From positions 1 to 47,822 of the forward strand of contig JBIIIT010000002.1 of NCBI GenBank assembly GCA_044234435.1: a DNA stretch of 47,822 nt, read 5' to 3'. The position numbers and the translations under genes were made by a program. The DNA comes from Candidatus Saccharimonadia bacterium (GTDB lineage: Bacteria > Patescibacteriota > Saccharimonadia > CAILAD01 > BJGX01). This document shows, piece after piece, positions 2,833 to 44,879 of the stretch. The notes below the pieces were generated by a model, which was given only the letters and a program-made list of their open reading frames with translations, was not told the DNA's origin and searched no databases. Numbering within the stretch: position 1 is the first letter of the stretch; each line of letters begins with the position of its first letter.

Positions 2833-4098
2833 GTGAGTATGATAGAACTAAGCAAATGTCCAAATTGTTCAGAAGATGAAAGAGTAACTATTGCAGGAAA
2901 AGAATTCTGCATGCGTTGCGGTACCCCCTCTGAAGACAATGCAATGATGGGTGTCAATCAGGCCCAGCCTGAAGCTAATCAGGGCACAGATCCAGCGCCT
3001 GTCGTCGACCAGTCTGCCGTTCAGAAGTTTTCTGAAGTGCAAACGCCACCATCTCAGATTGAAAATACAAGCCCCGCTTCATCTATCGGAGAGTTTGTGC
3101 CTCCACCAAGAATGGAAGTCGCAGCTATGAACTCTAGTCCCGTAAACAATGCTGCCGAAGCACCTATAGCTCAAAATCAGCCTTCTATTTCAAGTCCTAT
3201 TCCAATCGTCCCAGTAACACCTCCGCCCATACAGCCACCAGCCAATGTGATGCCCCAGGTTGCTGCAATGGGCACAATGTCTCTAGACAAAAAGCAGCCT
3301 GGAGTTCTCTCTGATGACCAATTTGATCAGCTTACTGCATCGGTAAATTCTGCAGTTGCACCTACTGCCCAAGCTCCTATTGTGAATAATTCGACAGTAA
3401 CTTCAGTGCCAGATTCTTCCGGCAAACCTGGTGCCGAATTAGAAAATAAAAACATTCCCATTACAGATCCAATTGGAGCCCAGGATTTAAATAATACCCA
3501 TCAGCAAGTGTCAGCAGAGCCTGTTAAATCTAAGCTCGCAATGTCTACAGATATTTACTCTAACGACAACAAAGCCCCAGCAGCTGAAACCCACGACCAA
3601 GGTAAGGGCACTGAGCCTAAAAAGAAATCAGCTGCCAAGGTCGCTAAGCCTGTTGCAATTGCAGTTAGTATTGCCGCACTTTTTGCTACAGGTGCCTATA
3701 TTTGGAAGGTAAATTATCCCAGTCTTGCATTCAAAATAGCTAGTGCTAAGGCTGGAATTAGTGCCACTATGCCGGGCTATGTTCCTGCAGGCTACAATCT
3801 AGGAGGCAGGATACAGACAAATCCAGGGACTGTAAGCTATAGCCTGCTTGGTAATTCAAACGATAATCGTATTAGTGTCACTCAAACCAAAACAGACTGG
3901 GATAGCCAAGCACTCGCAGAAAATTACGTCGCCCCTAAGGCCGAAAACTATCTTGCCCTTCAGGCTCAGGGTCTTACAATCTACGTGATGGGAAAAAACG
4001 AAGCCACTTGGGTCAATAAGGGCACATGGTATAAGCTGGATGGTAAAGGCCAAGAGCTTAATCAAGATCAAATAATCAAGATAGCGACTAGCTTATGA
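2833..4098 (+). CDS. Zinc-ribbon / Pro-rich / single-TM protein with DUF4367-like C-terminal domain
   Basis: N-terminal CPNC...CMRCG zinc ribbon, long Pro/Gln-rich linker and one TM (VAIAVSIAALFATGAYIW). The C-terminal domain has a PGYVPAGY...VSYSL...ISVTQTK pattern as in DUF4367 anti-sigma-like proteins. The start could be ATG 2839 instead. Confidence 0.6.
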   Translation: MSMIELSKCPNCSEDERVTIAGKEFCMRCGTPSEDNAMMGVNQAQPEANQGTDPAPVVDQSAVQKFSEVQTPPSQIENTSPASSIGEFVPPPRMEVAAMNSSPVNNAAEAPIAQNQPSISSPIPIVPVTPPPIQPPANVMPQVAAMGTMSLDKKQPGVLSDDQFDQLTASVNSAVAPTAQAPIVNNSTVTSVPDSSGKPGAELENKNIPITDPIGAQDLNNTHQQVSAEPVKSKLAMSTDIYSNDNKAPAAETHDQGKGTEPKKKSAAKVAKPVAIAVSIAALFATGAYIWKVNYPSLAFKIASAKAGISATMPGYVPAGYNLGGRIQTNPGTVSYSLLGNSNDNRISVTQTKTDWDSQALAENYVAPKAENYLALQAQGLTIYVMGKNEATWVNKGTWYKLDGKGQELNQDQIIKIATSL

Positions 4099-4436
4099 AC
4101 GACAGGGCATGGGGGGAGCTTGTCGACCTAATAGACGAACAGTATGTTATTGATAATTCCGATCGACGAGAAGAATCTTTAGAGGACGATAAGAAGCTCA
4201 AGCAAACTGTAGAATCTATTGAGTTTGAAAAGGACAATATCAAGTACAGAATAGAGCGTATTACGGGTCCGCGAATCATTGATAAAAAAACTTTTTACTC
4301 TGGCCATGGTTCAGCCAATAGAATCCAATATGTTTATGACCCAGATGAGACTAGCTCAAGAGTTGTTTTTTACAAACAGCTTGCTGACGGTCATTATAAT
4401 GAGATATCTCCAGAAGACCTGATGTCGGGTACCTAA
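4095..4436 (+). CDS. Hypothetical protein (113 aa)
   Basis: ORF start overlaps the upstream stop (ATGA). Coding-like composition, no recognisable motif. Confidence 0.5.
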   Translation: MNDRAWGELVDLIDEQYVIDNSDRREESLEDDKKLKQTVESIEFEKDNIKYRIERITGPRIIDKKTFYSGHGSANRIQYVYDPDETSSRVVFYKQLADGHYNEISPEDLMSGT

Positions 4437-4454
4437 TCTGGTATAATATCAGAT

Positions 4455-5870
4455 ATGGAAAATCCAGTAAGAGTTAGATTTGCCCCAAGCCCAACCGGCT
4501 TTTTACATATTGGCGGTATTCGCACCGCACTTTTTAATTATCTTTTTGCTAAGGCTAACGGTGGGAAGTTTATTTTGCGCCTTGAAGACACCGACCGCGA
4601 ACGGTTCGTCGAAGAGGGTGTTGAGCAGATTATCAAATCACTCGACTGGCTGGGATTGCACCCAGATGAAGGCGTTTGGTATGAGGAAAAACCAGGCGAG
4701 CATGGGCCTTACGTTCAATCAAAACGGCTTAATCATTACGAGGAATACGCTAAATATCTGGTTGATGAGGGATTGGCTTATTATTCGCAGGCCACGCCTG
4801 AGCAAATCGAATCTTTAAAAGCCGAAGCTATTAAAGAAAAGCGCCCGTTTGTATACAAACACACAATGGAGCCCGAAGCCGGACCAGTATCGACCGGGGG
4901 GCTTCCAATTAGATTAAAAGTCCCCGAAGGTAAAATAAATTGGAAAGACGAAGTTCGTGGAGAGTTCGAAACTAACAATGAAATAATTGATGATTTTATT
5001 ATCATAAAGGCCGACGGCTATCCGACATACAACTTTGCCAATGTAATCGATGATCATCTTATGAAAATAACTCATGTTATAAGAGGCGACGAGTTTATTA
5101 GTAGCACCGCAAAGCACGCACTTTTGTATGATCTTTTAGGATTCGATAGACCAGCTTTTGTGCATTTGGCGCCAATACTTGGTCCCGATGGTAAAAAGAA
5201 GCTCAGTAAGCGAGATGGTGACGTTAACGTATTAGAGTACAAAGCAAAAGGGTATCTGCCGGAGGCTATACTGAACTTTTTAGCTTTACTAGGATGGAAT
5301 GATGGATCCACCCAAGAAATATTTACCCCTGAAGAATTAACAGAAAAATTCTCTATCGATAGAATACAAAAAAGCCCTGCAGTGTTTGATATTAACCGAC
5401 TAGACTGGATGAATGGCGAATACTTGCGTAATAACCTCAGCGACGAAGAACTTTTTGAATATATCAAACCATTTGTGCCAGAGTCTTGGCTTAGTGATAT
5501 GCATTATTTTAAGTCTGTACTGGAACTTGATAAAGAACGCATCAAACGCTTTGACGAAGCAAGATATATTATGGAGATATTTTTTGAAACTCCGCAAGTA
5601 TCTAAAGATTTACTATGCAAAAAGGATGACATCGAAACTATAAGAGGGTGGATTGGTAAAGCTGTAGATTCTATTGAAAACATAGACTTTAGTCATGATG
5701 AAGTCGAAAGAGCATTGCGTGAACTTACCGAAGAGCTTGGTGTCCAAACGGGTAGACTATTTTATGTGCTACGAGTCGGCCTTACTGGCAGAACAGAAGC
5801 CCCGGGGCTATTTGATATTTTCGTAACTTTAGGTAAAGATGAGTCAATAAAACGGCTAAAAAGCATTTAG
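4455..5870 (+). CDS. gltX: Glutamate--tRNA ligase
   Basis: RFAPSPTGFLHIGG (HIGH) and KLSKRDG (KMSKS) class I motifs. Length of 471 aa fits bacterial GluRS. Confidence 0.95.
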   Translation: MENPVRVRFAPSPTGFLHIGGIRTALFNYLFAKANGGKFILRLEDTDRERFVEEGVEQIIKSLDWLGLHPDEGVWYEEKPGEHGPYVQSKRLNHYEEYAKYLVDEGLAYYSQATPEQIESLKAEAIKEKRPFVYKHTMEPEAGPVSTGGLPIRLKVPEGKINWKDEVRGEFETNNEIIDDFIIIKADGYPTYNFANVIDDHLMKITHVIRGDEFISSTAKHALLYDLLGFDRPAFVHLAPILGPDGKKKLSKRDGDVNVLEYKAKGYLPEAILNFLALLGWNDGSTQEIFTPEELTEKFSIDRIQKSPAVFDINRLDWMNGEYLRNNLSDEELFEYIKPFVPESWLSDMHYFKSVLELDKERIKRFDEARYIMEIFFETPQVSKDLLCKKDDIETIRGWIGKAVDSIENIDFSHDEVERALRELTEELGVQTGRLFYVLRVGLTGRTEAPGLFDIFVTLGKDESIKRLKSI

Positions 5871-5872
5871 CG

Positions 5873-6514
5873 ATGAAATATATATTATTTTCACATGGCT
5901 TTGGTGTGCGCAAAGACAGCAAGGGCATGTTTACAGATATTGCAAAGGCCTTTCCGGCCTATAAGCCTGTGATGTTCGACTACAATAATTATGACAGCAA
6001 AACCAATACAATCACGGTTCTTAGCTACAAAAAGCAAGCTAAAATAATTAAATCTCATATATCTAGAATTGATAAAAAAGATCGTAATGCTGAAATCATT
6101 ATCATTGCTCATTCTCAGGGGGCAATTGTGGCTGGGCTTTGCAATAAAAAAACTTTCAAGGCTGTACTGCTGGCGCCACCTACCACCGTATCTGCTCGTC
6201 GCTCAAAACTAAGGCCAAATCGAAAAGTTTTAAAGAATGGCTCTGTAATGATATTTAAAAAAGATGGCAGTAAAATTCTATTAACAACTGCCTTTATGCT
6301 TGGTTTAAGATTTACTAACCCCCTAAGAATATATGAAAGGCTAGCCCTGCGTGAACGAACGATAATTATTGCGGCTAAACAAGACGAAATGGTAAATAAT
6401 TTAAATCTGCACAAAGTCCGTAGTGCTGAATTATATGAGATCGATGGCGATCATAACTTCACCGGCAAATATAGAAAAGGCCTCATAGAGACCCTTTCTA
6501 AAATTTTAACCTAA
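5873..6514 (+). CDS. Alpha/beta hydrolase fold protein
   Basis: 213 aa with an AHSQGA nucleophile elbow (GxSxG-like) and a late DGDH motif. Starts 2 nt after the gltX stop. Confidence 0.6.
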   Translation: MKYILFSHGFGVRKDSKGMFTDIAKAFPAYKPVMFDYNNYDSKTNTITVLSYKKQAKIIKSHISRIDKKDRNAEIIIIAHSQGAIVAGLCNKKTFKAVLLAPPTTVSARRSKLRPNRKVLKNGSVMIFKKDGSKILLTTAFMLGLRFTNPLRIYERLALRERTIIIAAKQDEMVNNLNLHKVRSAELYEIDGDHNFTGKYRKGLIETLSKILT

Positions 6515-6524
6515 TATTTCTTTT

Positions 6525-7559
6525 CTAATCCCAGTCCAGAGTTCCGCCGGTTTGGTATTCGATAACGCGAGTTTCGAAGAAGTTCTTTTCTTTAGAAAGG
6601 TCGGCTGCTTCGCTCATCCATGGGAATGGGTTTTTGGTGTGGAATTGTTTTGGTAAGCCTACTGAAGCTAGGCGACGGTCGGCAACGTGCTCAATATATT
6701 GCTTGAAACCGTCGGCATTCATTCCGAAGATTCCATTCGGGAATACATCCTGTGCATAGCTATATTCTAACTTGGCAGCCTCTTTAACTAGATCGATGAT
6801 TCGCTGTTGGAATTCGTCGGTCCAAAGCTCTGGTTGTTCTTCCTTAATGGCGTTGATCATATTTATACCGAAGTTTAGGTGTTGAGATTCGTCGCGCATA
6901 ATGTATTGGATTTGCTCAGCACTGCCTACAAGCTTGTTTTGGCGTTGGAATCCGAAGATAACAGCAAAGCTTGAGTAGAAGAATATACCCTCTAATATAA
7001 GCGAGAAAACGCAGAGGTTTTCTAAAAACTTCTGATCATTTTCGAAAGTTCCTGTGTGGAAATTATCATCAAATATGCCCTCGTTAAAAGTAAGTATGAA
7101 CTTGGCCTTGCTGTAGTGGGATGCATTTTCTCGGTACATATTGAATATGCTTCCGCCGTCTAAGCCTAAGCTTTCTACGATGTACTGATAGGCATGGGTA
7201 TGGATTGCCTCTTCATAAGATTGGCGCAATAAGTACATGCGACACTCTGGACTTGAAATATGCTTATAGAATGCCAGAACTAAGTTATTTGCAGCGATTG
7301 AATCGGCCGTAGTAAAGAATCCGAGTGCTGTTTGGAATGCTTGGCGTTCATCATCACTTAGTTTATCTGATTTCCACAGCTCAATATCGTCTTGCATGGC
7401 GATTTCGGTCGGCAGCCAGTGGTTGGCATTACCGGCTAAATACGCATCCCATGCAAAGTTATGTTTCATTGGGTGTAATTGAATTACATCGGCATCTTCG
7501 CCATTAATTACTCTTCTTTTGTTGATGTCTGGTCGGACATCGGTCATCTTAAGTGACAT
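6525..7559 (-). CDS. nrdB: Ribonucleoside-diphosphate reductase beta subunit (class Ia R2)
   Basis: Di-iron ligand blocks EEAIHTHAY and RDESQHLNF. GGAGGG Shine-Dalgarno (SD) sequence upstream. Lies directly downstream of nrdA. Confidence 0.95.
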   Translation of the reverse strand: MSLKMTDVRPDINKRRVINGEDADVIQLHPMKHNFAWDAYLAGNANHWLPTEIAMQDDIELWKSDKLSDDERQAFQTALGFFTTADSIAANNLVLAFYKHISSPECRMYLLRQSYEEAIHTHAYQYIVESLGLDGGSIFNMYRENASHYSKAKFILTFNEGIFDDNFHTGTFENDQKFLENLCVFSLILEGIFFYSSFAVIFGFQRQNKLVGSAEQIQYIMRDESQHLNFGINMINAIKEEQPELWTDEFQQRIIDLVKEAAKLEYSYAQDVFPNGIFGMNADGFKQYIEHVADRRLASVGLPKQFHTKNPFPWMSEAADLSKEKNFFETRVIEYQTGGTLDWD

Positions 7560-7583
7560 AGTTTACCCTCCATTATTTTATTT

Positions 7584-10286
7584 TTACTCTGCTGTAGCTG
7601 CTGATTCGCGCTTGTGGGTGGCGCCGAATTCTGCAGTGTCTACGGTTGATTTTTCGACTTGTGATATGGCCAAACTTCTTAGGTAGTAAGTAGTCTTTAA
7701 GCCCTGTTCCCAGGCAGCCATATAGATATCGCTCAATTGCTTGCCGCTAACTCCATGCACAAAGATATTAAAGCTTTGGCTTTGGTCAATCCATTTGCCA
7801 CGGTGGGCAGTGATCTTAACGAGCGCTAGAGGATTGATTTCGAACACTTCTTTGTATTTATTTCGAAGCTTTTCTGGAATTTCGGTAATCTTTTGAATCG
7901 ATCCGTCGTGGAATTTAATTTTTTTGACCATTACTTCATTCCACATGTTTAGCTTTTTGAGATCTTCGATTAGATATGAGTTGATTACCGTAAAGTCACC
8001 GCTCATATTGGACTTAACATATAGATTTTTGTAAATTGGCTCGATGCATGGGTAGCAGCCAGCAATGTTTGAAATCGAGGCGGTCGGTGCAATGGCCATG
8101 GTGTTGGAGTTGCGCATACCATGCTTTTTGACATGGGATTTGGCGTATTTCCAATCAAGCTTACCGCCGCGCTTAACATCAATTTTGCGTCCACGTTCTT
8201 TTTCTAGCAGATCGACAGTGTCGGCTGGGAAGATTCCGCGCTCCCACTTAGAACCCTTAAAGCTCTTATATGCACCACGCTCTTTGGCAAGCTTACTTGA
8301 ACCCATGATGGCGTGGTAGCTAATAAGTTCCATCGATTCGTCGGCAAATTCTACAGCTTTGGCTGAGTCGAAGTTAATATCTAACATATAAAGCGCGTCC
8401 TGGAAGCCCATAATTCCCAATCCAACCGGTCTATGCTTGAGGTTCGAATTTTCACATTCCTTAGTGGTGTAGTAGCAAATGTCTACAACATTATCAAGCA
8501 TCCGCATAGCGAGTTCGGTAGTGTTTTCGATCAGCTCTTTATCAAGTTTGCCGGCTTTGATATGTTTAGCCATGTTGATCGAACCTAAGTTACAAACGGC
8601 CGTTTCTTCAGCGCTGTTATTAAGCGTAATTTCAGTACATAGATTGGAATTATGGATTACACCCTGATGGTCTTGAGGACTTCTAACGTTACAAGCATCT
8701 TTGAAGGTAATCCATGGGTGGCCGGTTTCAAATAGCATGGTTAGCATTTTGCGCCACAGTTGGATTGCGGGAATTTTGCGAAATAGGCTGATTTTGCCTT
8801 CTTCGGCCATTTTTTCATATTCTTCATAACGCTTTTTAAATGCAGCCCCATACAGGTTGTGTAGATCTGGAGTCTCGTCTGGGCTAAATAGCGTCCATGG
8901 TTCATCATTGGCAACGCGCTCCATAAATAAATCTGGAACCCAGTTGGCGGTGTTCATGTCGTGAGTACGACGACGCTCATCACCGGTGTTTTTGCGTAGC
9001 TCTAAGAAATCTTCGATATCTAAGTGCCAGGTTTCGAGGTAGGCGCAGGTTGCACCTTTACGTTTACCTGAACGACTAATTGCAACAGTAGTATCGTTCA
9101 TGATCTTTAAGAATGGAATCACACCCTGTGATGGAATATTAACAGTCTTAATTAGCGATCCGGTAGAGCGAATATTAGACCAGTCAGTAGCGATACCGCC
9201 AGAATATTTGCTCATTAGGGCGTTGTCCAGATAAACCTTAAATATATGCTTAAGATCGTCTTCGACAGTGTTTAGGAAGCAAGAGCTAAGCTGTGGCTTG
9301 CTGGTTCCTGAGTGGAAAAGGGTAGGGGTCGATGGAACATAACGAAGAGTAGATAGCACGTCGTAAAATTCCATTGCCCATTTTTCTTTATCCTTCTTTT
9401 CAGCAACTGCTAGACCCATAGCAATACGCATCCAGAAGCCTTGAGGAACCTCGAGGCGTCGGCCGCGACCCTGGGACTGTATAAAGTAGCGATCGTGAAG
9501 CATATCTAAGCCCATAAAGTCGAGCATATTGTCGCGTTCTGGCTTCATATATTCCGCAAGCTTCTTCAGGTCGAAAGCAAGTAGCCGCTTGTCTAGACGG
9601 CCGTCTTTTACGGTGTCCTTAATGAAGTTAATAAAGCTTTCCTGATAAATTTCTTCTGTGTTCTTTTTATATTCCTTACCCAGTACTTCTTTATATACTT
9701 TACGAAGCATTAAGCGAGCTGATAGTTGAGAATAGAGGGGGTCTGATTCGATTTGGGCCTTAGCGGCCATAATCATGGCGTCCTCTAGCTCGTCGTAGGT
9801 AATGCCGTCGTAAATACTGCCCTTAACTGCCTGGGCAATATCGTCTAGATCGACATCGTCGGCAATATCATCGGCAGCTTCGATGAGGTCCTTAACAAGC
9901 TTGGCGTAGCTGAAGTTTTCAAGGCTACCATCTGGCATAGTTACTTTTAAATTGCTCTGTTCGAGTTTTTCGGCTGAGCGAGCAGCTTCAGCCTCGCGCA
10001 TGGCTTTGTGTGTATCGCGATAAATGATAAATGCACGAACTGTTTTGTAATGACCATCCTTCATTAACTGTTGTTCGATAAGATCTTGTAGGGTTTCAAC
10101 ATCGGGTGTCGATTCGCTAAAGGCCTGCTCTGCTAGCACGATTACTTCGTTAACAACAGCTACAATATCTTCTTTGGTGGCTTCACCACCCGCGCTATCA
10201 CTAGCTTTTCCGATTGCCGTTTCGATTCGGCTGCGGTCAAAATCAACCATTTGGCCATTACGTTTTTTTATTTGCTCAAAACTCAT
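7584..10286 (-). CDS. nrdA: Ribonucleoside-diphosphate reductase alpha subunit with N-terminal ATP-cone (class Ia R1)
   Basis: ATP-cone start (KRNGQMVDFDRSRIETAI), active-site NLCTEI and C-terminal TTYYLRS. AAGGAGGG SD 6 nt upstream of the ATG. Confidence 0.95.
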   Translation of the reverse strand: MSFEQIKKRNGQMVDFDRSRIETAIGKASDSAGGEATKEDIVAVVNEVIVLAEQAFSESTPDVETLQDLIEQQLMKDGHYKTVRAFIIYRDTHKAMREAEAARSAEKLEQSNLKVTMPDGSLENFSYAKLVKDLIEAADDIADDVDLDDIAQAVKGSIYDGITYDELEDAMIMAAKAQIESDPLYSQLSARLMLRKVYKEVLGKEYKKNTEEIYQESFINFIKDTVKDGRLDKRLLAFDLKKLAEYMKPERDNMLDFMGLDMLHDRYFIQSQGRGRRLEVPQGFWMRIAMGLAVAEKKDKEKWAMEFYDVLSTLRYVPSTPTLFHSGTSKPQLSSCFLNTVEDDLKHIFKVYLDNALMSKYSGGIATDWSNIRSTGSLIKTVNIPSQGVIPFLKIMNDTTVAISRSGKRKGATCAYLETWHLDIEDFLELRKNTGDERRRTHDMNTANWVPDLFMERVANDEPWTLFSPDETPDLHNLYGAAFKKRYEEYEKMAEEGKISLFRKIPAIQLWRKMLTMLFETGHPWITFKDACNVRSPQDHQGVIHNSNLCTEITLNNSAEETAVCNLGSINMAKHIKAGKLDKELIENTTELAMRMLDNVVDICYYTTKECENSNLKHRPVGLGIMGFQDALYMLDINFDSAKAVEFADESMELISYHAIMGSSKLAKERGAYKSFKGSKWERGIFPADTVDLLEKERGRKIDVKRGGKLDWKYAKSHVKKHGMRNSNTMAIAPTASISNIAGCYPCIEPIYKNLYVKSNMSGDFTVINSYLIEDLKKLNMWNEVMVKKIKFHDGSIQKITEIPEKLRNKYKEVFEINPLALVKITAHRGKWIDQSQSFNIFVHGVSGKQLSDIYMAAWEQGLKTTYYLRSLAISQVEKSTVDTAEFGATHKRESAATAE

Positions 10287-12518: not shown

Positions 12519-12527
12519 TATTTATAC

Positions 12528-12555
12528 GAAAAAACCCCGCAAATAAATTGCGAGG
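12528..12555 (-). terminator. Intrinsic terminator of GC-rich cassette 1
   Basis: The minus strand reads CCTCGCAA-tttat-TTGCGGGG followed by TTTTTT. The stem contains a G.U pair only in the minus-strand RNA (it is C.A on the plus strand), which supports minus orientation. Confidence 0.7.
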
Positions 12556-12749
12556 TGGGCTATGACCCGAGGGCTTGCTTGGCGAGAGAAGTCGAACTTC
12601 TTCAGCAAACCCCCGGGTCGATCAGTGCCTGGGTCCCTGCGGAGAGGAAGGGTGTGGGCACGTCTGCCAATGCAGGGCCCAGGCTCACGCTAGTGCGTCC
12701 ACTAGCGATTATATGCCGGCAAAGTCAAGCGACGATGCCGGACGAAATA
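12556..12749 (-). other. GC-rich, highly structured 3' untranslated region / candidate ncRNA of cassette 1
   Basis: No ATG and no plausible ORF on the minus strand. At least five stems are present: 12716-12741, 12688-12707 (8 bp with a GACG loop), 12628-12640 pairing with 12672-12683, 12564-12573 pairing with 12610-12619 (10 bp including one G.U), and 12587-12601. Confidence 0.35.
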
Positions 12750-13184
12750 TTAATCGGAAGGAGAGTTAATGCCGGCAGTGCCGGTTTCACTCCGACAATT
12801 TCCGTCTCCGACTGCACTCTGCTGAGTGCCGAAGAGAGAGCTGCCGTTGGAAGGAGGAATTACCTCGATGCCGGAGCATCGTTGGTTTCCTTCCTGCCAA
12901 CTTGCGTAGAGCTTGTAGTCGCTCCACTCAACGGCAATCTCCCGGATGGGGAGGTCGTTGAGCTCGGCGTAGGCTCGAAGCTCTCGCTCGGCCGTGGCAC
13001 GCTCTGTTTCCAGACGCTGGCCGTTGTGGTGAGTCAGCACCAAGAACAAGCTCATTGCCGACAAAGCGAGAACAGTCAGCAGAGTAAAGAAGAACGTCTT
13101 GAGCTTCACCGTTCGAGGCGGCTTGTCGTCGAACTCTTCTTCGCTCTCGATAACTTCCGAATCAATACTTTGGGTTGCCGTCAT
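12750..13184 (-). CDS. GC-rich cassette 1: single-pass membrane protein (144 aa), unknown function
   Basis: AGGAGG (13189-13194) lies 4 nt from the ATG at 13184 (MTATQSIDSE...). The protein has an acidic N-terminal tail, one TM (FFFTLLTVLALSAMSLFLVL) and a C-terminal domain with 2 Cys. Codons are mostly G/C-ending, unlike neighbouring genes. The track start at 13226 falls inside the 5' UTR. Confidence 0.7.
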   Translation of the reverse strand: MTATQSIDSEVIESEEEFDDKPPRTVKLKTFFFTLLTVLALSAMSLFLVLTHHNGQRLETERATAERELRAYAELNDLPIREIAVEWSDYKLYASWQEGNQRCSGIEVIPPSNGSSLFGTQQSAVGDGNCRSETGTAGINSPSD

Positions 13185-13231
13185 GGCACCTCCTGGTTCG
13201 TCAGGGCATACAACACCCTGAATCAAAAGTA

Positions 13232-13260
13232 ATTATAAACTTATATAGTATAAATGTCAA
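13232..13260 (-). promoter_or_regulatory. Consensus sigma-70 promoter of cassette 1
   Basis: The minus strand reads TTGACA (13255-13260), exactly 17 nt, then TATAAT (13232-13237). A 5'-proximal hairpin TCAGGG...CCCTGA follows at 13201-13221. Confidence 0.7.
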
Positions 13261-18404: not shown

Positions 18405-18809
18405 ATGTCAGAGCTCTATGAAGTTCATAAGGCAATTCGCTACATTTATCCAGAGCAAGCAGTACCTGTAAAGCAAATTGTGTCAGCCCCGACAAGAGAC
18501 CCTTACAGAGTACGTCCAATTTTTGGTGCCATCGGCTTTGACTTTATCAGATTGGTTTTTTTTGAAATCGATACAGGAGAAATGCTTCGCCATATAGTGG
18601 CCGAACCAGAAACTTACTACTGGGGCGACGAAATATCCCTTGAAGAAGCATTGCTTATGAAGGGGCTAGAGGAGATCGACGAAGTGTCGAGCTGTGAGCG
18701 TTTTGTCTATACTGCCTGGGGAGCCTTTATTCCACTAAAGGACAACGAGATGGCCCTACCTTATCCTGAGCTTCCCGAACTACCAGCAAATATGAGGCTG
18801 GATTCATAG
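18405..18809 (+). CDS. Hypothetical protein, paralog A of the 19156 gene (134 aa)
   Basis: TATAAT plus an AAGGAG leader. Shares RYIYPE, GAIGFDF, LRHIV-E-ETYYWG-E, ERF and WG..PLKD blocks with the ORF at 19156. Confidence 0.65.
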   Translation: MSELYEVHKAIRYIYPEQAVPVKQIVSAPTRDPYRVRPIFGAIGFDFIRLVFFEIDTGEMLRHIVAEPETYYWGDEISLEEALLMKGLEEIDEVSSCERFVYTAWGAFIPLKDNEMALPYPELPELPANMRLDS

Positions 18810-19155: not shown

Positions 19156-19557
19156 ATGCAAGAAAGCGAAGTCTATGAGTCTCAGATTGAAGTTTTTAAG
19201 TGTGTGAGATACATTTACCCTGAAGGGGTAATTCCAATCAGGGATTTCGCGCCTCGATTGAGCGAGAACGCTGCTGACGTCGAGCCTGTGAATGGAGCAA
19301 TCGGATTTGATTTCGTCAGTCTCATTTACTTTGACTTCGAAGATCGTCGCCTGCGACACATCGTGGGCGAAGCCGAGACGTATTACTGGGGCCAGGAGCT
19401 TAGTAGGGACGAACTGGCCAATCTGCCAGATACCGATTTCGTTCTGGAGCGAATCTCTACTGAGCGATTCCTGCTAAGTTCATGGGGCGGCATTGTGCCA
19501 CTCAAAGATTTTGAGCATGGAATCACCCCAAATCTTATTCAGGCTCCAAGCAGCTAA
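19156..19557 (+). CDS. Hypothetical protein, paralog B of the 18405 gene (133 aa)
   Basis: Shares the conserved blocks listed for 18405-18809. Visibly more G+C-rich than typical genes here. Followed by a strong terminator. Confidence 0.65.
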   Translation: MQESEVYESQIEVFKCVRYIYPEGVIPIRDFAPRLSENAADVEPVNGAIGFDFVSLIYFDFEDRRLRHIVGEAETYYWGQELSRDELANLPDTDFVLERISTERFLLSSWGGIVPLKDFEHGITPNLIQAPSS

Positions 19558-21481: not shown

Positions 21482-21877
21482 ATGGAATATGGTTCTTGGT
21501 ACTCAAGACAAAAAAAGCCCTCTTGGGCACCTCCTGAAATTGCCTTTGGCCAAATATGGAGCTTTTTGTATCCAATAATTTTTGCCGTTAATATTTATGT
21601 TTTCTATCTTTTAAGCAAGGGGCAAATATCCTGGCGAGTAGCATTGCCATTTTGGCTTAATTTATTTTTCAATTTTGCATTTTCACCACTACAGTTTGGT
21701 CTTAGATCTCAAATATTATCTTCAATAGATATAGTGTTGGTACTTGTAACGACAGTATGGTGCATTATAGCTATCTGGCCCTATAGTAAGCTTGCATCCA
21801 TAGCCTTCACGCCTTATTTGATTTGGGTATCTATAGCAACCGTTTTGCAGATTTCTATTACAGTTCTCAATAGATAG
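21482..21877 (+). CDS. tspO: TspO/MBR family (tryptophan-rich sensory) protein
   Basis: KPSWAPPEIAFGQIWSFLYP start and five Trp-rich TM helices typical of TspO. Confidence 0.8.
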   Translation: MEYGSWYSRQKKPSWAPPEIAFGQIWSFLYPIIFAVNIYVFYLLSKGQISWRVALPFWLNLFFNFAFSPLQFGLRSQILSSIDIVLVLVTTVWCIIAIWPYSKLASIAFTPYLIWVSIATVLQISITVLNR

Positions 21878-21923
21878 TTTAAAGGGCTTATGCTAAAATT
21901 AATTTATAAATAAATGGAGATTT

Positions 21924-22697
21924 ATGAAGGCTAAAACAATTCAAGGCAAAAAATTACAAAAGTTTAATTTAATTATGGGTTTAATCCATCTGGCACAGGC
22001 CGGGATACTTTTTGCTATTCTCAATTATTCATTTAAAATACCTATCTTAACCAGATTTTTTGATACAACTCCGGGCGGTGGATTTACAGTCATCACAGAA
22101 AGGCTTTGGGAAGTTCCGATTGCAGTAATTGCCCCAATATTCCTACTCATTGCCGCCTTTTTCCATCTATTGATTGCCTCGCCATTATATATTCGCCGCT
22201 ACGAGCAAAATATTAAAAATGGCATCAACCCAATTCGTTGGTGGGAGTATTCTATTAGCTCTTCTTTGATGCTTGTAGGGTTAATGATGATGGCTGGGCT
22301 TACCGAACTTCCTAGTGTAGTTTTTGTTTTTGTACTTAACTGGATAATGAATATGATGGGTCTAATGATGGAGCGCTACAACCAGCTAACAGATAAGACC
22401 AAATGGTTTCCGTACAATATTGGAGTAGTTGCTGGGCTTACCCCGTGGGTAATCGGCTTTATATATTTCTGGGTCAACACCAATAATATCTCTGATTCCA
22501 TACCGTCTTGGGCAAAAATTGGCTTTATTATTACTTTTGTCTTTTTCAACACCTTCGCAATCAATATGCTACTTCAATACAAAAAAGTCGGAAAGTGGAA
22601 GAACTACGTTTATGGAGAAAAGGGCTATATCTGGCTGAGTTTAATAGCTAAATCAGTGCTTGCATGGATAATTGTCCTGGGCACATTAAATCAGTAG
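21924..22697 (+). CDS. Heliorhodopsin
   Basis: 257 aa, 7 TM. The blocks LQKFN..G.IHLAQ, FFHLLIAS, NPIRWWEYSISSS and WLSLIAKSVLAW follow heliorhodopsin 48C12 as I recall it. The Schiff-base Lys is present (K243, nt 22650-22652), as are counterion Glu E108 and His22/His81. Confidence 0.9.
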   Translation: MKAKTIQGKKLQKFNLIMGLIHLAQAGILFAILNYSFKIPILTRFFDTTPGGGFTVITERLWEVPIAVIAPIFLLIAAFFHLLIASPLYIRRYEQNIKNGINPIRWWEYSISSSLMLVGLMMMAGLTELPSVVFVFVLNWIMNMMGLMMERYNQLTDKTKWFPYNIGVVAGLTPWVIGFIYFWVNTNNISDSIPSWAKIGFIITFVFFNTFAINMLLQYKKVGKWKNYVYGEKGYIWLSLIAKSVLAWIIVLGTLNQ

Positions 22698-23437: not shown

Positions 23438-24028
23438 TTGAGAGCAGCAAAACTCAAGCTTGTAACGTACCAAAAAGAGGAGCAAATCCTAGCTGAAAAA
23501 TATTTGCTAGAAACCTGCAACACTCTTACCGATACATACAATACAAAGTTTACAATTCAAGACCTTTTAAACATCGCAAGCTCTACCAATGAAATTGCTG
23601 CTAGAAGAGTATTCAATTCGGTACTTATTAAGCACGATGTGTATGTAGACAGCAACGAGATGAATAGCCAGATTGCAGACATTGTTTCTGCTTATAATAA
23701 TTACGCCACGTTGATCGGATTTGGCAACTGCGTGGGTGACGAAATCGCCCAAATTGCTCATTCCAAGGTCGCAAAAGTTAGCGACGTTTGGCCCAAGGAT
23801 GTCCAGGGTCAATATCAGTCAACTTCTGATGTATATATGACATCCAATACGGATTTCAGGCAGAATGTCAGAGACAGGGCAAGCAGAAAACTCAATTATC
23901 TTACTAACTTGGGTGTTATGCTTACCCTTACTCCACAAGAAATTGAACTTTCTAATGTGACAGTAACTTCTGTAGAAGTCCTTTGTTCGGTAATCGATCA
24001 GTTCAATCCTAGCCTGATTATTAACTGA
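23438..24028 (+). CDS. Hypothetical protein (196 aa, TTG start)
   Basis: AGGAGG lies 4 nt upstream of the TTG at 23438. Followed by a terminator at 24046-24069. Confidence 0.5.
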   Translation: MRAAKLKLVTYQKEEQILAEKYLLETCNTLTDTYNTKFTIQDLLNIASSTNEIAARRVFNSVLIKHDVYVDSNEMNSQIADIVSAYNNYATLIGFGNCVGDEIAQIAHSKVAKVSDVWPKDVQGQYQSTSDVYMTSNTDFRQNVRDRASRKLNYLTNLGVMLTLTPQEIELSNVTVTSVEVLCSVIDQFNPSLIIN

Positions 24029-26520: not shown

Positions 26521-26868
26521 TTATAGCTGCTCCCATGGCCACATGAAGTTGGGGCTTAAGATTTCTTCTTTGCACTTTTCGATTTCTGAATCCTTAACAA
26601 TATAAAGCTCTACTGTGGTTGGAAAAAGCAATTTATTGTTTAGCAAAAATCGATCGTAGCATTCTTTGTAGTCTGCTTTGGAATTAACCTCCTGGGTGAG
26701 CGGCACAAAGGAATGTATATCCATTTCAAAAACCATGTCAGCAATCAGGGAATAACCTTTAGGTATTTTTGGCTTCTTTTTGGGTGGGTCGCCCAAATAA
26801 ATACCCAAGGTTCTCACGAAGCTCTGTTCAAAAAAGGTTCTTCCATCGATTATCGTTTTGGTGTACAC
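26521..26868 (-). CDS. Hypothetical protein (115 aa, GTG start)
   Basis: AAGGAGAGTC SD before the GTG. Shares an LG-Y---PP---PKI----SLIA motif with the ORF at 37303-37569. Confidence 0.5.
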   Translation of the reverse strand: MYTKTIIDGRTFFEQSFVRTLGIYLGDPPKKKPKIPKGYSLIADMVFEMDIHSFVPLTQEVNSKADYKECYDRFLLNNKLLFPTTVELYIVKDSEIEKCKEEILSPNFMWPWEQL

Positions 26869-41480: not shown

Positions 41481-42743
41481 CTAATTGTACACAACTTTAT
41501 AAATCAAGTTTTGCTTGTCGTCACTAATATACATATTTCCAGCAGGGTCAAAGCCAACCCCAACAGGGCGGCCCCAAGCACCGCTACCATCTAACCAGCC
41601 AGTAATAAAGTTATATTCCTTCATTGGAGTAGACTTGGTATCAACCCAAATCACTTTATAGCCAGTCGGGACGGTGCGGTTCCAAGATCCGTGCATCGCT
41701 CCAAAAAAGCCACTCGAGAATACACTTGGCCAGCTCGCTTTAGCGGCCTCATTTTCAAATGTAATTCCAAGCGGGGCATAGTGAGCCTGAAGGCCTAGCA
41801 CTGGAGCTTGGGTTTGGGTTTTGCAATATTCAACGCGGTCTTTGTATTCAGGATTATTAATTTTGTCGCCATAGCAATACGGCCAGCCATAATTCTTGCC
41901 TTGTTCGATAATATTAACTTCTTCTGGGGGAATGTCGTCTCCAATTTGGTCTCGGCCCATATCCAAGCCCCAAAGTTTGCCGTCATTAAATGCAAAGCCT
42001 ACAGTATTGCGAAGCCCACTAGCATATATTTCACCGCCAGTACCATCGAGGTTATAACGCATAATAGTCGCCCGTCGATTATCGTTTTCAATACAAACGT
42101 TGCAAGACGAACCAACCGATACATACATTTTATTGTCAGGCCCAATCACCACGGTGCGGGTAGTGTGTCCGCCTCCAGTTAATTTGTTGCCTCCTGGCAA
42201 GTTATCAACCAACACTTCTTTTGAATTATATGTGCCATCGCTCTTAATACCTCTGTACACACTCACGCGGGTTTGTTCGGCCAAGTATAAATCGCCGTTG
42301 TAGTAATAAACCGAGTGCGGGGTATTTAAATTGTCTTCAATCACCACGGGTATGCCGGCGCTGCCGCCATTATTTGGAATGGCATAAATACTATCTCCGG
42401 TGTTACTACCCACAAACATTGTTCCGTCTGGGGAAAATGAAAAGAATCTGGCACCTTTAATATTTGTGGCATAAATGCTAATTTTAAAGCCTTCCGGAGC
42501 AAAGAGCTCCTTGCCGCCAACCATCTGCGGAACCAATTTAAATGGTGCAGACAGCTGATTTTGATTATTGCTATTGAGCTGTTGTTGATTCAGCTTTCCG
42601 CTTAGGAACGCAGTGTTATTAATTATCCAAAATATTACGTAGCCAATTGCCGATAGCAGTACTAACGCAATTACAACCAAAGCAATATTGCGTTTTTGGT
42701 GGTTTTTGCTTTTCTTTTTAGGCATAAGAACATTATACAACAT
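41481..42743 (-). CDS. PQQ-dependent (sorbosone/aldose) sugar dehydrogenase family protein, membrane-anchored
   Basis: N-terminal KKKSK plus TM anchor and beta-propeller blocks including NYGWPYCYG. The start may be the ATG at 42725, which has TATAAT 6 nt upstream. Confidence 0.8.
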   Translation of the reverse strand: MLYNVLMPKKKSKNHQKRNIALVVIALVLLSAIGYVIFWIINNTAFLSGKLNQQQLNSNNQNQLSAPFKLVPQMVGGKELFAPEGFKISIYATNIKGARFFSFSPDGTMFVGSNTGDSIYAIPNNGGSAGIPVVIEDNLNTPHSVYYYNGDLYLAEQTRVSVYRGIKSDGTYNSKEVLVDNLPGGNKLTGGGHTTRTVVIGPDNKMYVSVGSSCNVCIENDNRRATIMRYNLDGTGGEIYASGLRNTVGFAFNDGKLWGLDMGRDQIGDDIPPEEVNIIEQGKNYGWPYCYGDKINNPEYKDRVEYCKTQTQAPVLGLQAHYAPLGITFENEAAKASWPSVFSSGFFGAMHGSWNRTVPTGYKVIWVDTKSTPMKEYNFITGWLDGSGAWGRPVGVGFDPAGNMYISDDKQNLIYKVVYN

Positions 42744-42770: not shown

Positions 42771-42801
42771 GAAAAGCCGCACTACGTCGTTGTAGTGCGG
42801 C
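42771..42801 (-). terminator. Intrinsic terminator of GC-rich cassette 2
   Basis: The minus strand reads GCCGCACTAC-aacgac-GTAGTGCGGC (perfect 10-bp stem) followed by TTTTC. Confidence 0.7.
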
Positions 42802-42821
42802 CGGGAGTCGAGTTGATCGAC

Positions 42822-43121
42822 TCAGTTGTAAATGCTCTGGGAGTGAGTCTGATCCTCGTAGAGCATCCTGAAGTAGTCGGCTTCCGCCTTCAGCTCGGTG
42901 TACATGTAGTGCACGCCGGCGATGACGCCGATCAGAATCGACACGAGGGGAGCCCACTCCCAGAAGGAGTTCAGTCCCTTGTCGGAGACCACTCCGACGG
43001 CGTTCAGGCCACCGAAGATGGCTGCGATGCAGCCCAGGGAGAAGATCATGGTGTATGCGTACACGATGACCGAGCGCCACTTGACGCTCTTGGCCGGGTT
43101 GGGCCGAATGAACTTGTACAT
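42822..43121 (-). CDS. GC-rich cassette 2: two-TM small membrane protein (99 aa), unknown function
   Basis: AAGGAGG (43126-43132) lies 4 nt from the ATG at 43121. Strongly G/C-ending codons. Two TM helices followed by an amphipathic charged tail (TELKAEADYFRMLYEDQ). Confidence 0.7.
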   Translation of the reverse strand: MYKFIRPNPAKSVKWRSVIVYAYTMIFSLGCIAAIFGGLNAVGVVSDKGLNSFWEWAPLVSILIGVIAGVHYMYTELKAEADYFRMLYEDQTHSQSIYN

Positions 43122-43164
43122 GGTGCCTCCTTAGGCAGGGTAACCGACCTGGTTACGGCCTGAA

Positions 43165-43193
43165 ATTATACTAAATATGCTTAATTTTGTCAA
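43165..43193 (-). promoter_or_regulatory. Consensus sigma-70 promoter of cassette 2
   Basis: The minus strand reads TTGACA (43188-43193), exactly 17 nt, then TATAAT (43165-43170). A 5'-proximal hairpin (CAGG-GTAACC ... GGTTAC-GG-CCTG) follows at 43136-43162. Confidence 0.7.
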
Positions 43194-43204
43194 TATATTA
43201 TGTC

Positions 43205-43241
43205 GAAAATAAAACAGCACTGTCATATAACGACAGTGCTG
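43205..43241 (-). terminator. Intrinsic terminator of GC-rich cassette 3
   Basis: The minus strand reads CAGCACTGTC-gttatat-GACAGTGCTG (perfect 10-bp stem) followed by TTTTATTTT. Confidence 0.75.
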
Positions 43242-43257
43242 CAGCAGTACATACAAC

Positions 43258-43716
43258 TCAGACCATGCTGTGCGATGTGCCGAAGCTATCAGCCAGCCGG
43301 GTAAGTGCGATCTGCTCCTGCTGGAGTTGTTTCACTTCCCTTCGGTAGATATCGGCGGATGAGTAGTATCCGTTCGACAAGGCCTGCTGGATTCTCTTCT
43401 CCATCTTTGCAATGGACTCCGACAAGATCGCCAATCTCTGCAAGAGTGATGCAGCCATTGCCTGACGTGCGTACTCGCCGACCTTGTCCATGAGCTCGGG
43501 CTTTTCCTGGATAGCATCCAAGAACTGCAAGGTTCCCTCGATGTCTGCGTGCCTCTGTGTCAGCTGCGCAGTCTCCTGACGATGGCTGAACATCGCCAGG
43601 TAGTACGCGCGCTTCTGCTCTCGCAGTAGCAAGAGCATGAACACCATTAGCATTAGTCCTAGTACTGAGATTCCTAGGATCAATTCTCTGCTGTTTACTA
43701 TCTCTTCGAAGCTCAT
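43258..43716 (-). CDS. GC-rich cassette 3: N-terminally anchored helical protein (152 aa), unknown function
   Basis: AGGAGG (43721-43726) lies 4 nt from the ATG at 43716 (MSFEEIVNS...). One TM (LILGISVLGLMLMVFMLLLL), then a long Gln/Glu/Leu-rich helical region. The track start at 43749 abuts the -10 box (43750-43755), upstream of the expected transcription start. Confidence 0.7.
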   Translation of the reverse strand: MSFEEIVNSRELILGISVLGLMLMVFMLLLLREQKRAYYLAMFSHRQETAQLTQRHADIEGTLQFLDAIQEKPELMDKVGEYARQAMAASLLQRLAILSESIAKMEKRIQQALSNGYYSSADIYRREVKQLQQEQIALTRLADSFGTSHSMV

Positions 43717-43749
43717 GTTTCCTCCTGAGCTGTTGGGTACGATGCGCAT

Positions 43750-43778
43750 ATTCTAGGCTATTATAAATTTTTTGTCAA
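43750..43778 (-). promoter_or_regulatory. Near-consensus sigma-70 promoter of cassette 3
   Basis: The minus strand reads TTGACA (43773-43778), exactly 17 nt, then TAGAAT (43750-43755). Confidence 0.6.
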
Positions 43779-43870: not shown

Positions 43871-44281
43871 ATGGAAATCACACTAACTACACCGGCATTA
43901 CTTTTTCCTGCGATATCATTGCTTCTGTTGGCTTTCACCAATCGCTATATAACTGTTGCTAATGTGATTCGAACTCTCAAAAACCAATTCGACAAGGGCG
44001 ACCGCAGCGACAATCTAGACTTACAGCTCAAATCCCTATATGAAAGAATAGAGATTATTAGGTATATGCAGCAGTTCGGCATTGGATCATTGCTTTTTGC
44101 ATCAATTTCAATGTTTTTAATATTTGCTAACCTCCAATTACTAGGGAAGGTATCATTTGGGATATCTTTAATTTTGCTTATTGCTAGTATGTTTCTTTCG
44201 CTTCACGAAACCACCTTATCCAACAAGGCCATAGAACTAGAAATTAAAACTATTCTTAAAAAAGAAAAGCACATAAAATAA
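43871..44281 (+). CDS. DUF2721 family membrane protein
   Basis: The N-terminus LTTPALLFPAISLLLLAFTNRY matches my recollection of DUF2721. Three TM helices. Confidence 0.65.
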   Translation: MEITLTTPALLFPAISLLLLAFTNRYITVANVIRTLKNQFDKGDRSDNLDLQLKSLYERIEIIRYMQQFGIGSLLFASISMFLIFANLQLLGKVSFGISLILLIASMFLSLHETTLSNKAIELEIKTILKKEKHIK

Positions 44282-44333: not shown

Positions 44334-44879
44334 GTGAATATATTCAAAAAGACAATTCGATTTTTTAGAAAGCACCAAAGTGAATACTTCTTCGCATGGG
44401 GAGCCAACATAGAGGTTGAAATGTTAGAGGCAATTATCGGCAGAAAGCCAGAGTTTATATCAAATGTCGTTATGAGTGGTTATGAATTGTGTGTACAAAC
44501 CTTAATTGATATTCCTACCTCGGGAGCTAACCCAAGGGCAATCTTGCACAAAGCCTGGGGAGATAATTTCAAGAGCTATGCAATTAGAGAAAGCCGCGGC
44601 CAAAAAGTTGCTGGTACGCTTTACAAAATTACAAGCTACGAAAGAAAAATGGTCGATGCCTGGGAGCTTGTGCCAGAAGGTTGGTTTAAATCTGATTTAG
44701 TAGAAGTTACCGACTCTAATGGTAAAAAATACAAAGCTCGAACCCAAGTTCTTCCAGCTAGCCACAATACAGGCAAACCAGTTGACGGCTTAAATTACAA
44801 GCCCTGGATTGTTCCCAAGGAGGATCTATTACGAATCGCCAAAAAAGACTCGAAAAGATACCCGGGCTATGTTTATTAA
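44334..44879 (+). CDS. Gamma-glutamylcyclotransferase (GGCT/AIG2-like) fold protein, tentative (GTG start)
   Basis: YFFAWGANI near the N-terminus (compare YFAYGSN) and G.LYKIT..E...D.WE later in the protein. Weak motif-level call. Confidence 0.4.
   Translation: MNIFKKTIRFFRKHQSEYFFAWGANIEVEMLEAIIGRKPEFISNVVMSGYELCVQTLIDIPTSGANPRAILHKAWGDNFKSYAIRESRGQKVAGTLYKITSYERKMVDAWELVPEGWFKSDLVEVTDSNGKKYKARTQVLPASHNTGKPVDGLNYKPWIVPKEDLLRIAKKDSKRYPGYVY

Follow-up and report, generated by a model that had tools for sequence, protein, structure and literature searches.

How do two small, G+C-rich genes, each with a near-consensus promoter and a terminator of its own, come to stand in tandem on an A+T-rich bacterial chromosome? 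We addressed this question in a 47,822-nucleotide (nt) stretch of Candidatus Saccharimonadia DNA (GCA_044234435.1, contig JBIIIT010000002.1), referred to as the window, where two such units lie on the minus strand between positions 42771 and 43778. The upstream unit, cassette 3 or unit 3, holds a 152-amino-acid (aa) gene, and the downstream one, cassette 2 or unit 2, a 99-aa gene. Both are predicted to run in the same order: near-consensus σ70 promoter, 33-43-nt leader, strong Shine-Dalgarno (SD) sequence four nucleotides before the ATG, short membrane-protein open reading frame (ORF) and intrinsic terminator. An earlier note, made by reading this DNA by eye, had seen in them engineered-looking modules filled with foreign DNA. 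We found that the control sequences, which we call the shell, are conserved between related genomes and the coding parts exchanged inside them, and that the G+C excess is a persistent feature of these genes.

Shells are conserved more strongly than the genes they enclose

Unit 2 was compared across twelve loci, collected by protein look-ups and by a metagenome scan with the promoter motif. Its 29-nt promoter, including the 17-nt spacer, is 90-100% identical in all twelve, and an 18-mer at the core of the terminator, CACTACAACGACGTAGTG, is invariant in all loci, while the coding sequence shares 56-79% identity as DNA and 34-71% as protein. The 30 nt upstream of the −35 element fall to as little as 47% identity where the neighbouring gene differs. 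Promoter and terminator are thus conserved and the outer flank is not, and conservation therefore spans the interval from the −35 element to the T run.

Wobble and compensatory changes suggest that the leader and terminator hairpins behave as RNA structures. The 5′ leader hairpin of unit 2 is paired in all nine distinct sequences, its only changes being U-A to U-G and A-U to G-U. One stem pair of the main terminator alternates between G:C and A:U among loci, and a pair of the small 3′ hairpin switches between U:A and C:G. The hairpin that embeds the SD sequence is rebuilt across alleles (GCCU/AGGC, GCAC/GUGC, GGUAC/GUGCC and GGAAC/GUUCC, read by eye); its register shifts between allele groups, and the pattern is only suggestive. 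Folding energies of the leader hairpins alone are not significant against shuffled sequences (z = −1.1 and −1.7), so it is conservation that supports them.

The shell of unit 3 can be followed across genes that are unrelated to one another. Its promoter block is homologous in loci L005, L006, L008, L017 and L020, and the motif GGAGGAAAyATGAGCTT at the start of the gene is conserved even where the remainder of the ORF is unrelated. In seven loci that enclose three unrelated ORFs, the terminator stem is 100% paired, four of its ten pairs change on both sides, and none of 500 shuffles reached its covariation score. Taken together, these alignments point clearly to a non-coding shell under stronger constraint than the ORF. 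A regulon defined by the conserved unit 2 spacer was considered and dropped, as the window holds no second copy of that spacer.

Coding parts are exchanged inside conserved shells

A sharp view of an exchange comes from locus L012, which is 95-100% identical to the window from position 44411 to 43132, a stretch that takes in the DUF2721 gene, unit 3 and unit 2's promoter and leader. The unit 2 ATG is the precise point at which identity drops, to about 60-70%, and the allele beyond it is nearest to a class found in other species. A similar discontinuity separates adjacent genes between the window and L004, where synonymous divergence (dS) is 0.09 for the unit 3 gene and 0.70 for the unit 2 gene next to it. 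The unit 2 gene is a hypervariable allele: it falls into three classes only 34-57% identical, next to a GSDH gene that is 88-95% identical, and it remains syntenic beside that GSDH gene across the clade. These comparisons show divergent unit 2 alleles swapped in otherwise identical backgrounds, with the shell marking the edges of the replaced segment.

At the upstream position whole genes differ. The 152-aa gene fills the slot in the window, L004 and L012. In L008 and L017 its place is taken by an unrelated 121-aa ORF with three transmembrane (TM) segments, and in L020 by an ORF of 85 aa, likewise unrelated; the slot is empty in L007 and L009. At least three unrelated ORFs thus occupy this slot in different genomes. 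All share a homologous promoter and a homologous, covarying terminator, and two of the three begin with the same codons, MSF.E. The wider setting varies too, with unit 2 directly following an NmrA-like gene in L007, L009 and L010, and unit 3 lying between an AIG2-like gene and a 234-aa gene in L005 and L006. Natural competence and homologous recombination have been demonstrated in Saccharibacteria (PMC10633639), which would offer a plausible route for such exchange of ORFs. We also considered a toxin-immunity pairing of the two genes and rejected it, because between the window and L012 the unit 3 gene is nearly identical and the unit 2 gene differs by more than 50%.

Anatomy of the units

On direct reading, the coordinates that the earlier note had given were all correct (Table 1), as was its picture of self-contained promoter, ribosome-binding site, ORF and terminator modules around small membrane proteins, to which we can add that the shells are conserved, the ORFs exchanged and the neighbours variable. 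The engineered-looking aspect of that reading was right, and more interesting than it was stated. Both terminators were confirmed, although their stems, described as perfect and 10 base pairs (bp) long, extend to 13 pairs in unit 3 and 11 in unit 2. The context reported as shared by the two −35 elements is present in both promoters as ATATTGACAAAA, and hand counts of 36 G+C in 60 nt at 42961-43020 and at 43441-43500 are exact.

The unit 2 and unit 3 promoters rank first and second among 21 promoter-like sites in a scan of 36-47.8 kb. The terminators fold stably, at −20.1 kcal/mol in unit 3 (z = −4.6 against shuffles) and −25.9 kcal/mol in unit 2 (z = −6.5); the unit 3 leader is weakly structured (−1.8 kcal/mol).

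Table 1 Features of units 3 and 2 and of cassette 1 in the window
Feature	Position	Strand	Description
Unit 3 promoter	43750-43778	−	TTGACA (43778-43773), 17 nt, TAGAAT (43755-43750), within TATTGACAAAAAA; 11 of 12 consensus matches
Unit 3 leader	43717-43749	−	33 nt; AGGAGG (43726-43721), 4 nt before ATG
Unit 3 ORF	43258-43716	−	152 aa; ATG at 43716
Unit 3 intrinsic terminator (predicted)	43204-43242	−	13-pair stem; hairpin 43242-43214, then TTTTATTTT
Unit 2 promoter	43165-43193	−	TTGACA (43193-43188), 17 nt, TATAAT (43170-43165); 12 of 12 consensus matches
Unit 2 leader	43122-43164	−	43 nt; 5′-proximal hairpin GTAACC/GGTTAC (43156-43140); AAGGAGG (43132-43126), 4 nt, ATG
Unit 2 leader, second short hairpin	43136-43125	−	GCCU/AGGC; embeds part of SD
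Unit 2 ORF	42822-43121	−	99 aa; ATG at 43121
Unit 2 3′ end	42771-42821	−	Small hairpin GTCGA/TCGAC (42821-42807); main terminator 42802-42775; T run
Cassette 1	12750-13260	−	TTGACA-17-TATAAT (13260-13232); leader hairpin; AGGAGG-N4-ATG at 13184; 144-aa single-TM ORF

This layout belongs to a minority class of genes in the window. In about 16 of 50 window genes, a TAnAAT hexamer ends 4-11 nt before the start codon and there is no SD sequence (for example those starting at 4455, 10560, 13584, 25156, 33853, 35555, 37636 (−) and 44947). Such a spacing is the signature of leaderless mRNAs, and these genes look leaderless. This group includes the GSDH gene that lies downstream of unit 2: its TATAAT (42737-42732) stands 6 nt from an ATG at 42725 (−), which fits better than the mechanically called start at 42743, the latter being probably wrong. 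Against this background the cassettes stand out by their −35/−10 pair, 33-47-nt leader and AGGAGG, and units 2 and 3 would be transcribed independently and strongly, unlike many of their leaderless-looking neighbours.

The G+C excess lies at third codon positions and is long-lived

Whole-gene G+C is 0.53 in unit 3 and 0.58 in unit 2, compared with 0.40 for the window. Relative to 48 window genes, the two genes deviate both in total G+C (z = 3.7 and 5.2) and at third codon positions, GC3 (z = 6.4 and 10.1). Window genes have G+C values of 0.46/0.35/0.38 at first, second and third positions (GC1/GC2/GC3; GC3 0.379 ± 0.049). The corresponding values are 0.48/0.38/0.87 for unit 2, 0.54/0.34/0.69 for unit 3 and 0.57/0.45/0.63 for cassette 1. 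In units 2 and 3 the excess lies almost wholly at third positions, and GC1 and GC2 are normal. Nearly all two-fold codons end in G or C: lysine is encoded by AAG in 14 of 15 cases (39% in the background), tyrosine by TAC in 17 of 17 (40%) and phenylalanine by TTC in 15 of 16 (32%).

We next asked how this excess is distributed among relatives. It is high in all homologues: those sharing 40-86% amino acid identity, on contigs of about 40-42% G+C, keep GC3 values of 0.64-0.79 at a dS of about 0.7 to more than 1, and orthologues of 40-70% amino acid identity still show the excess. Members of the unit 3 family reach GC3 values of 0.52, 0.79 and 0.91 in genomes of 41, 48 and 55% G+C, and exceed their annotated neighbours by 0.10-0.35 (genomes of 40, 41, 48 and 55% G+C). 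Polarised synonymous changes comprise 26 from GC to AT and 14 from AT to GC, small counts that were polarised with saturated outgroups; the flow toward A+T is weaker than neutral decay to the genome level predicts (p = 0.001-0.04, again from small counts). The excess is thus a persistent property of these genes over long evolutionary times and not a sign of recent import, and we conclude that it does not stem from recently acquired foreign DNA. We also tried the idea that SD-led genes are GC3-rich in general; cassettes aside, SD-led window genes average 0.40 and leaderless-like ones 0.38, a difference that is not significant (p = 0.11).

These results do not support the claim, as it was made, that the units are compositionally foreign. 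The foreignness is a third-position effect, kept in orthologues at dS of about 0.7 to more than 1, and the outside donors that were envisaged did not appear, both families being found on Saccharimonadia-like contigs only and unit 2 being syntenic with the GSDH gene clade-wide. The earlier note had named conserved lineage genes of typical composition as the outcome that would speak against it; the genes are indeed conserved in the lineage, but their atypical composition is conserved as well.

Two orphan families of small membrane proteins

Hydropathy predicts a single TM segment for the 152-aa protein and a pair for the 99-aa protein, in line with the small membrane proteins first proposed, and both products would sit in the cytoplasmic membrane. 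The unit 3 protein consists of an N-terminal TM anchor (residues ~6-34) and an all-helical domain of about 115 aa; its AlphaFold2 (AF2) model is all helix, a TM helix followed by three long helices, with a mean confidence (pLDDT) of 68.6. A full HMMER search of 1.84 billion cluster representatives returned 26 family members at E ≤ 1e-3, all full length and of the same layout, 129-167 aa long (all but one 143-167 aa), with the motif PELxxxLxEYSRQxVAAALLxRVNxL. The unit 2 protein begins with a basic N-terminus and ends in a charged C-terminal helix; between them lie two TM helices, which the conserved loop SDKGLxxFWExAP connects. AF2 models the protein as a helical hairpin (pLDDT 69.7). A word-indexed search of 5.8 billion proteins found 11 clusters of this family, even with a profile as query.

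Among the proteins found, both families are confined to Saccharimonadia-like contigs; no donor outside such contigs was found in the 5.8 billion proteins nor, for unit 3, in the 1.84 billion representatives. Scans against Pfam, NCBIfam, PHROGs and PADLOC gave nothing significant for the 99-, 152- and 144-aa proteins or for the alternative cargos, and no Pfam domain recurs consistently among unit 3 family members. The unit 3 profile drew only coiled-coil noise from PDB sequences (best E = 0.0024, a polyketide synthase linker), and Foldseek gave no match at E < 0.1 in PDB or BFVD, the top matches being ESCRT-III/Vipp1-like helical hairpins at E of about 1. Rfam returned nothing at the gathering score (a chance Qrr match, E = 0.14, lies outside the units). 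Protein searches of IMG/VR, INPHARED and PLSDB gave 0 matches, as did the shell DNA motifs in IMG/VR, and we found no literature describing these units in Saccharibacteria. The unit 3 family is undescribed, and both proteins are orphans.

Two likenesses suggested earlier for the 99-aa protein did not hold up in these searches. For a SLATT or DUF4231 protein, Pfam gave no match at E ≤ 1 except noise, and PADLOC gave nothing. For a holin, Pfam again gave no match, there is no lysin gene nearby, and the sole PHROG holin hit, phrog_1299 (E = 0.018, residues 55-74), spans 20 residues of a single TM helix.

What the units are likely to be

We consider units 2 and 3 to be, probably, moron-like, self-contained accessory genes of the chromosome, residing in a locus whose variability is driven by recombination. 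Replacement would rely on homologous recombination of DNA acquired through natural transformation, with homology arms provided by the conserved shells and flanks. As a guess, the products might be strain-variable envelope factors that either block the entry of phage DNA, as HK97 gp15 and T4 Imm do, or tune contact between the bacterium and its host; a role of this kind would explain why deep allele classes are maintained among close relatives. Several observations weigh against this interpretation. In the unit 2 protein the predicted outward loop is the most conserved part, and variation lies in the N-terminus and tail, both predicted to be cytoplasmic; this is not the classic pattern of a surface target and weakens the guess of phage exclusion or host contact. 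No link to phage appeared for either gene in the databases searched. Units 3 and 2 do not co-vary and so are no cognate pair. Promoter function alone does not account for the strong conservation of the unit 2 spacer, nor does this interpretation account for the GC3 excess; the lean of 26 to 14 toward A+T leaves room for some decay from a richer state. The L012 contig ends inside the unit 2 ORF, which places the 3′ breakpoint of the replacement out of view. Finally, promoter strength, transcription starts and termination are all read from the sequence.

A bolder version, which we put forward tentatively and regard as doubtful, takes the promoter-to-terminator shells themselves to be a cassette-exchange system, in which the conserved ends would act as movable homology arms and naturally competent cells would swap small ORFs, envelope and soluble alike, in fixed slots that are always expressed. 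If true, each strain would gain a repertoire of its own for excluding phages or recognising hosts, and the GC3 excess would either be needed for this exchange or arise as its by-product, possibly because gene conversion at a recombination hot spot is GC-biased, or through selection for stable leadered mRNAs in a genome with mostly leaderless housekeeping genes. Another candidate cause of the excess, and the form in which the earlier note's view survives, is import from G+C-richer organisms, most likely G+C-richer Saccharimonadia rather than another phylum, with too little time since for the genes to drift; the local promoter and terminator would have been carried along or have served as landing sites. 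Overall G+C (0.53-0.58 against 0.40), natural competence (PMC10633639), the net synonymous flow toward A+T (26 against 14), and unit 3 family members with GC3 of 0.79-0.91 in Saccharimonadia-like genomes of 48% and 55% G+C all fit such an origin, as do the unrelated neighbourhoods of that family (rpsU/hisS in L024, an Eco57I/ResIII gene in L022). We nevertheless judge import unlikely. GC1 and GC2 match the host genome, and at least four different genomes of 40-42% G+C keep GC3 at 0.64-0.87 at saturated synonymous sites, so that each of these orthologues would need a separate recent import. Unit 2 is syntenic with the GSDH gene, and all of its contexts that we read (L004, L007-L012 and L017-L021, with four of the 11 clusters outside the look-up) are low in G+C. 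Even in the genome of 55% G+C the unit 3 homologue is richer than its annotated neighbours, and the flow toward A+T stays below the neutral-decay prediction (p = 0.001-0.04, from small counts).

Two further explanations seem improbable to us. Were these ordinary native genes expressed at very high level, GC3 would reflect translational codon bias and the consensus signals high expression. Consensus promoters, optimal SD spacing, ATG starts and strong terminators would suit maximal expression, C-ending two-fold codons are strongly preferred, and the SD-led ribonucleotide reductase genes have the next-highest GC3 (0.45-0.46). Yet in L024, a genome of 48% G+C, the gene for ribosomal protein S21 has a GC3 of 0.34 and a unit 3 family gene about 800 bp away one of 0.79, which makes ordinary expression-linked codon bias unlikely. 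SD-led and leaderless-like genes hardly differ (0.40 and 0.38), the preference extends to G-ending lysine, glutamate and glutamine codons and so looks like composition rather than tRNA matching, and the proteins are rare, fast-evolving and replaceable, unlike those of core highly expressed genes. The units could also be remnants of a prophage or mobile element, either true morons or a lysis or toxin module (holin, type I toxin, SLATT-like pore), an origin to which we give little credence. It would account for their moron anatomy (PMC3594210), for the two TM helices and charged tail that recall class II holins, with the PHROG holin match at E = 0.018, and for the cassette-type gene beside the unit 3 homologue in L013 that matches phrog_26039 at 1e-40. 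The window ORFs scanned against Pfam include no phage, integrase, transposase or lysin gene, the window has no tRNA gene, and neither shell DNA nor proteins match IMG/VR, nor anything in INPHARED or PLSDB. SLATT, DUF4231 and holin families are absent from the Pfam matches, PADLOC gave none of note, products of 99 and 152 aa exceed the length of type I toxins, and inside the units there is no promoter-like site in antisense orientation.

Comparison with known systems

Of known concepts, the phage moron comes nearest to these units, and Juhala et al. 2000 reportedly presented gene 15 of HK97 as one. Morons carry a promoter and a terminator of their own and deviate in G+C content, and HK97 gp15, the founding example, is a small exclusion protein of the inner membrane that keeps phage DNA from entering, conserved in its N-terminal part and diverged at its C-terminus relative to chromosomal homologues (PMC3594210). 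Units 2 and 3 share with morons the single small ORF, the promoter and terminator of its own, a G+C content unlike that of the neighbours, and presence, absence or replacement between related genomes; like gp15, the unit 3 slot keeps an N-terminal start (MSF.E) in front of an unrelated TM anchor and C-terminal part. They differ in lying on the chromosome of a Candidate Phyla Radiation (CPR) bacterium, outside any phage or prophage and with no viral homologues found. Their G+C shift is long-lived and confined to third positions, and a shell conserved across species around an exchanged ORF falls outside the moron definition. Three of four moron features are found and the phage location is not; the units are therefore not filed as morons.

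T4 Imm is a small two-TM superinfection-exclusion protein that blocks phage DNA entry. Points in common with Imm and gp15 are the size, a hairpin topology in the membrane and an autonomous unit whose expression is predicted to be constitutive, but there is no similarity to them in sequence or structure. Pherotype and immunity-type loci of transformable bacteria are hypervariable between conserved flanks and subject to frequency-dependent selection. By analogy, our locus shows deep allele classes among close relatives, a sharp breakpoint at the ORF edge, conserved flanks and a competent host group; it differs in having no evident partner gene (toxin, peptide or receptor), and its flanks are just the promoter, leader and terminator of a single gene.

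Integron gene cassettes carry attC at the 3′ end, are usually promoterless and lie near intI and attI. Units 2 and 3 resemble them as tandem, exchangeable single-ORF units of unrelated content, but they have their own promoters, their 28-29-nt G+C-rich hairpins with T runs are not attC, and the ORFs scanned contain no integrase domain. The two TM helices and charged C-terminal tail of the unit 2 protein, seen by hydropathy and in the AF2 model, agree with class II holins but are a generic feature; an endolysin linkage is lacking, the neighbours being GSDH-like, DUF2721 and AIG2-like genes. Type I toxins are hydrophobic, usually shorter than 60 aa, and overlapped or adjoined by an antisense RNA gene; within 42771-43778 we found no opposite-strand promoter-like site and no Rfam match. 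From a recent genomic island the units differ by their normal GC1 and GC2, their exclusively Saccharimonadia-like homologues, and a setting with no tRNA or integrase gene.

Saccharimonadia and other CPR bacteria have tiny genomes with many unannotated small proteins, and variation of their envelopes is largely unexplained. The locus shows a gene class that combines consensus promoter, structured leader, SD sequence, GC3-rich ORF and terminator beside leaderless-looking housekeeping genes. Its main points of interest are the conserved shell with an exchangeable ORF, the contrast with leaderless neighbours and the long-lived GC3 excess. It also shows exchange of the coding part with retention of the control sequences. 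The locus supplies a sequence signature by which accessory genes may be found in these genomes, and the shells offer native expression signals for new Saccharibacteria genetic tools. Third-position G+C kept for so long in an A+T-rich genome warns against equating G+C islands with recent transfer.

Consensus promoter units elsewhere

The motif TTGACA-N17-TAnAAT matches exactly three sites on both strands of the 47.8-kb window, against 0.09 expected, and none of 100 shuffles reached three. All three matches precede G+C-rich small ORFs, the third heading cassette 1 (ORF 12750-13184), whose neighbours are unchanged in an independent 43.5-kb contig from the Joint Genome Institute (JGI). The counts agree with the earlier view that three units of the same design are hard to attribute to chance.

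On the 3′ side of cassette 1, on its strand, about 200 nt (12527-12750) are G+C-rich, with no ORF longer than 30 aa; this stretch, which may be a long 3′ untranslated region or a decayed ORF, runs to a hairpin that is a potential terminator for both an SDR gene and cassette 1. Two paralogous orphan genes, at 18405-18809 (+) and 19156-19557 (+), encode proteins of 134 and 133 aa with 41% identity. They lie about 350 bp apart, each with its own promoter-like site, SD sequence and hairpin-plus-T terminator; no family matches were found for either, and the second has a GC3 of 0.50, the highest among non-cassette genes. Two other orphans have near-normal G+C: 23438-24028 (+), with TATTGACA-17-TACTAT, a leader, AAGGAGG and a TTG start, and 26521-26868 (−), with TTGACT-17-CATAAT, a leader, AAGGAG and a GTG start.

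Members of the unit 3 family occur in similar company in other genomes. In L013 (GCA_964413715.1, 55% G+C; positions 4500-8500) at least five monocistronic small orphan genes flank the family member, with TTGAC(A/T)-16/17-TAnAAT promoters and GC3 values of 0.76-0.91, and some of their products are soluble. One cassette-type gene of this run (5792-6190), adjoining the unit 3 homologue, is the one that matches phage family phrog_26039. In L024 (GCA_016191105.1, 48% G+C; 3415-4462) two GC3-rich small genes (0.78 and 0.79), one of them the family member, lie between rpsU, whose GC3 is 0.34, and hisS, a clean contrast in composition within a core-gene neighbourhood.

Source of the DNA and soundness of the assembly

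The window is cellular chromosomal DNA from a freshwater member of Candidatus Saccharimonadia. Among named genomes the nearest is a metagenome-assembled genome of Candidatus Saccharimonadia from Lake Mendota (L008); of the species-representative genomes it alone has a close copy of the AIG2-like gene that neighbours the cassettes. Window genes include those for GluRS, class I ribonucleotide reductase, tRNA-guanine transglycosylase, heliorhodopsin, TspO, glycosyltransferases and transporters, and GSDH-like, DUF2721 and AIG2-like genes are the neighbours of the cassettes. The ORFs scanned against Pfam include no integrase, transposase, phage or lysin genes, and the window contains no tRNA genes.

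An assembly chimera or contaminating sequence could in principle produce the sharp change in composition, and several metagenome contigs do break close to the cassettes, L001 ending 130 bp upstream of unit 2. The locus DNA recurs in independent JGI, Logan and European Nucleotide Archive assemblies (L001, L002, L003, L012; at least four other assemblies) with an identical junction sequence, so the locus is not a misassembly. Diverged orthologous loci hold the same arrangement, and for practical purposes a chimera is already refuted. Misassembly, which the earlier note had named as an outcome that would undo its reading, thus finds no place here.

Two minor observations concern neighbouring genes. 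The DUF2721 protein (43871-44281, +) is 96% identical to that of L008 (999-1409) although synonymous sites are saturated (proportion of synonymous differences, pS, 0.75), and the AIG2-like gene that comes next is 72% identical between the two; the pattern points to either very strong purifying selection on a protein with no annotated function or a mosaic history. Further upstream in the window, at 21482-22697 (+), a heliorhodopsin gene directly follows a TspO/MBR gene.

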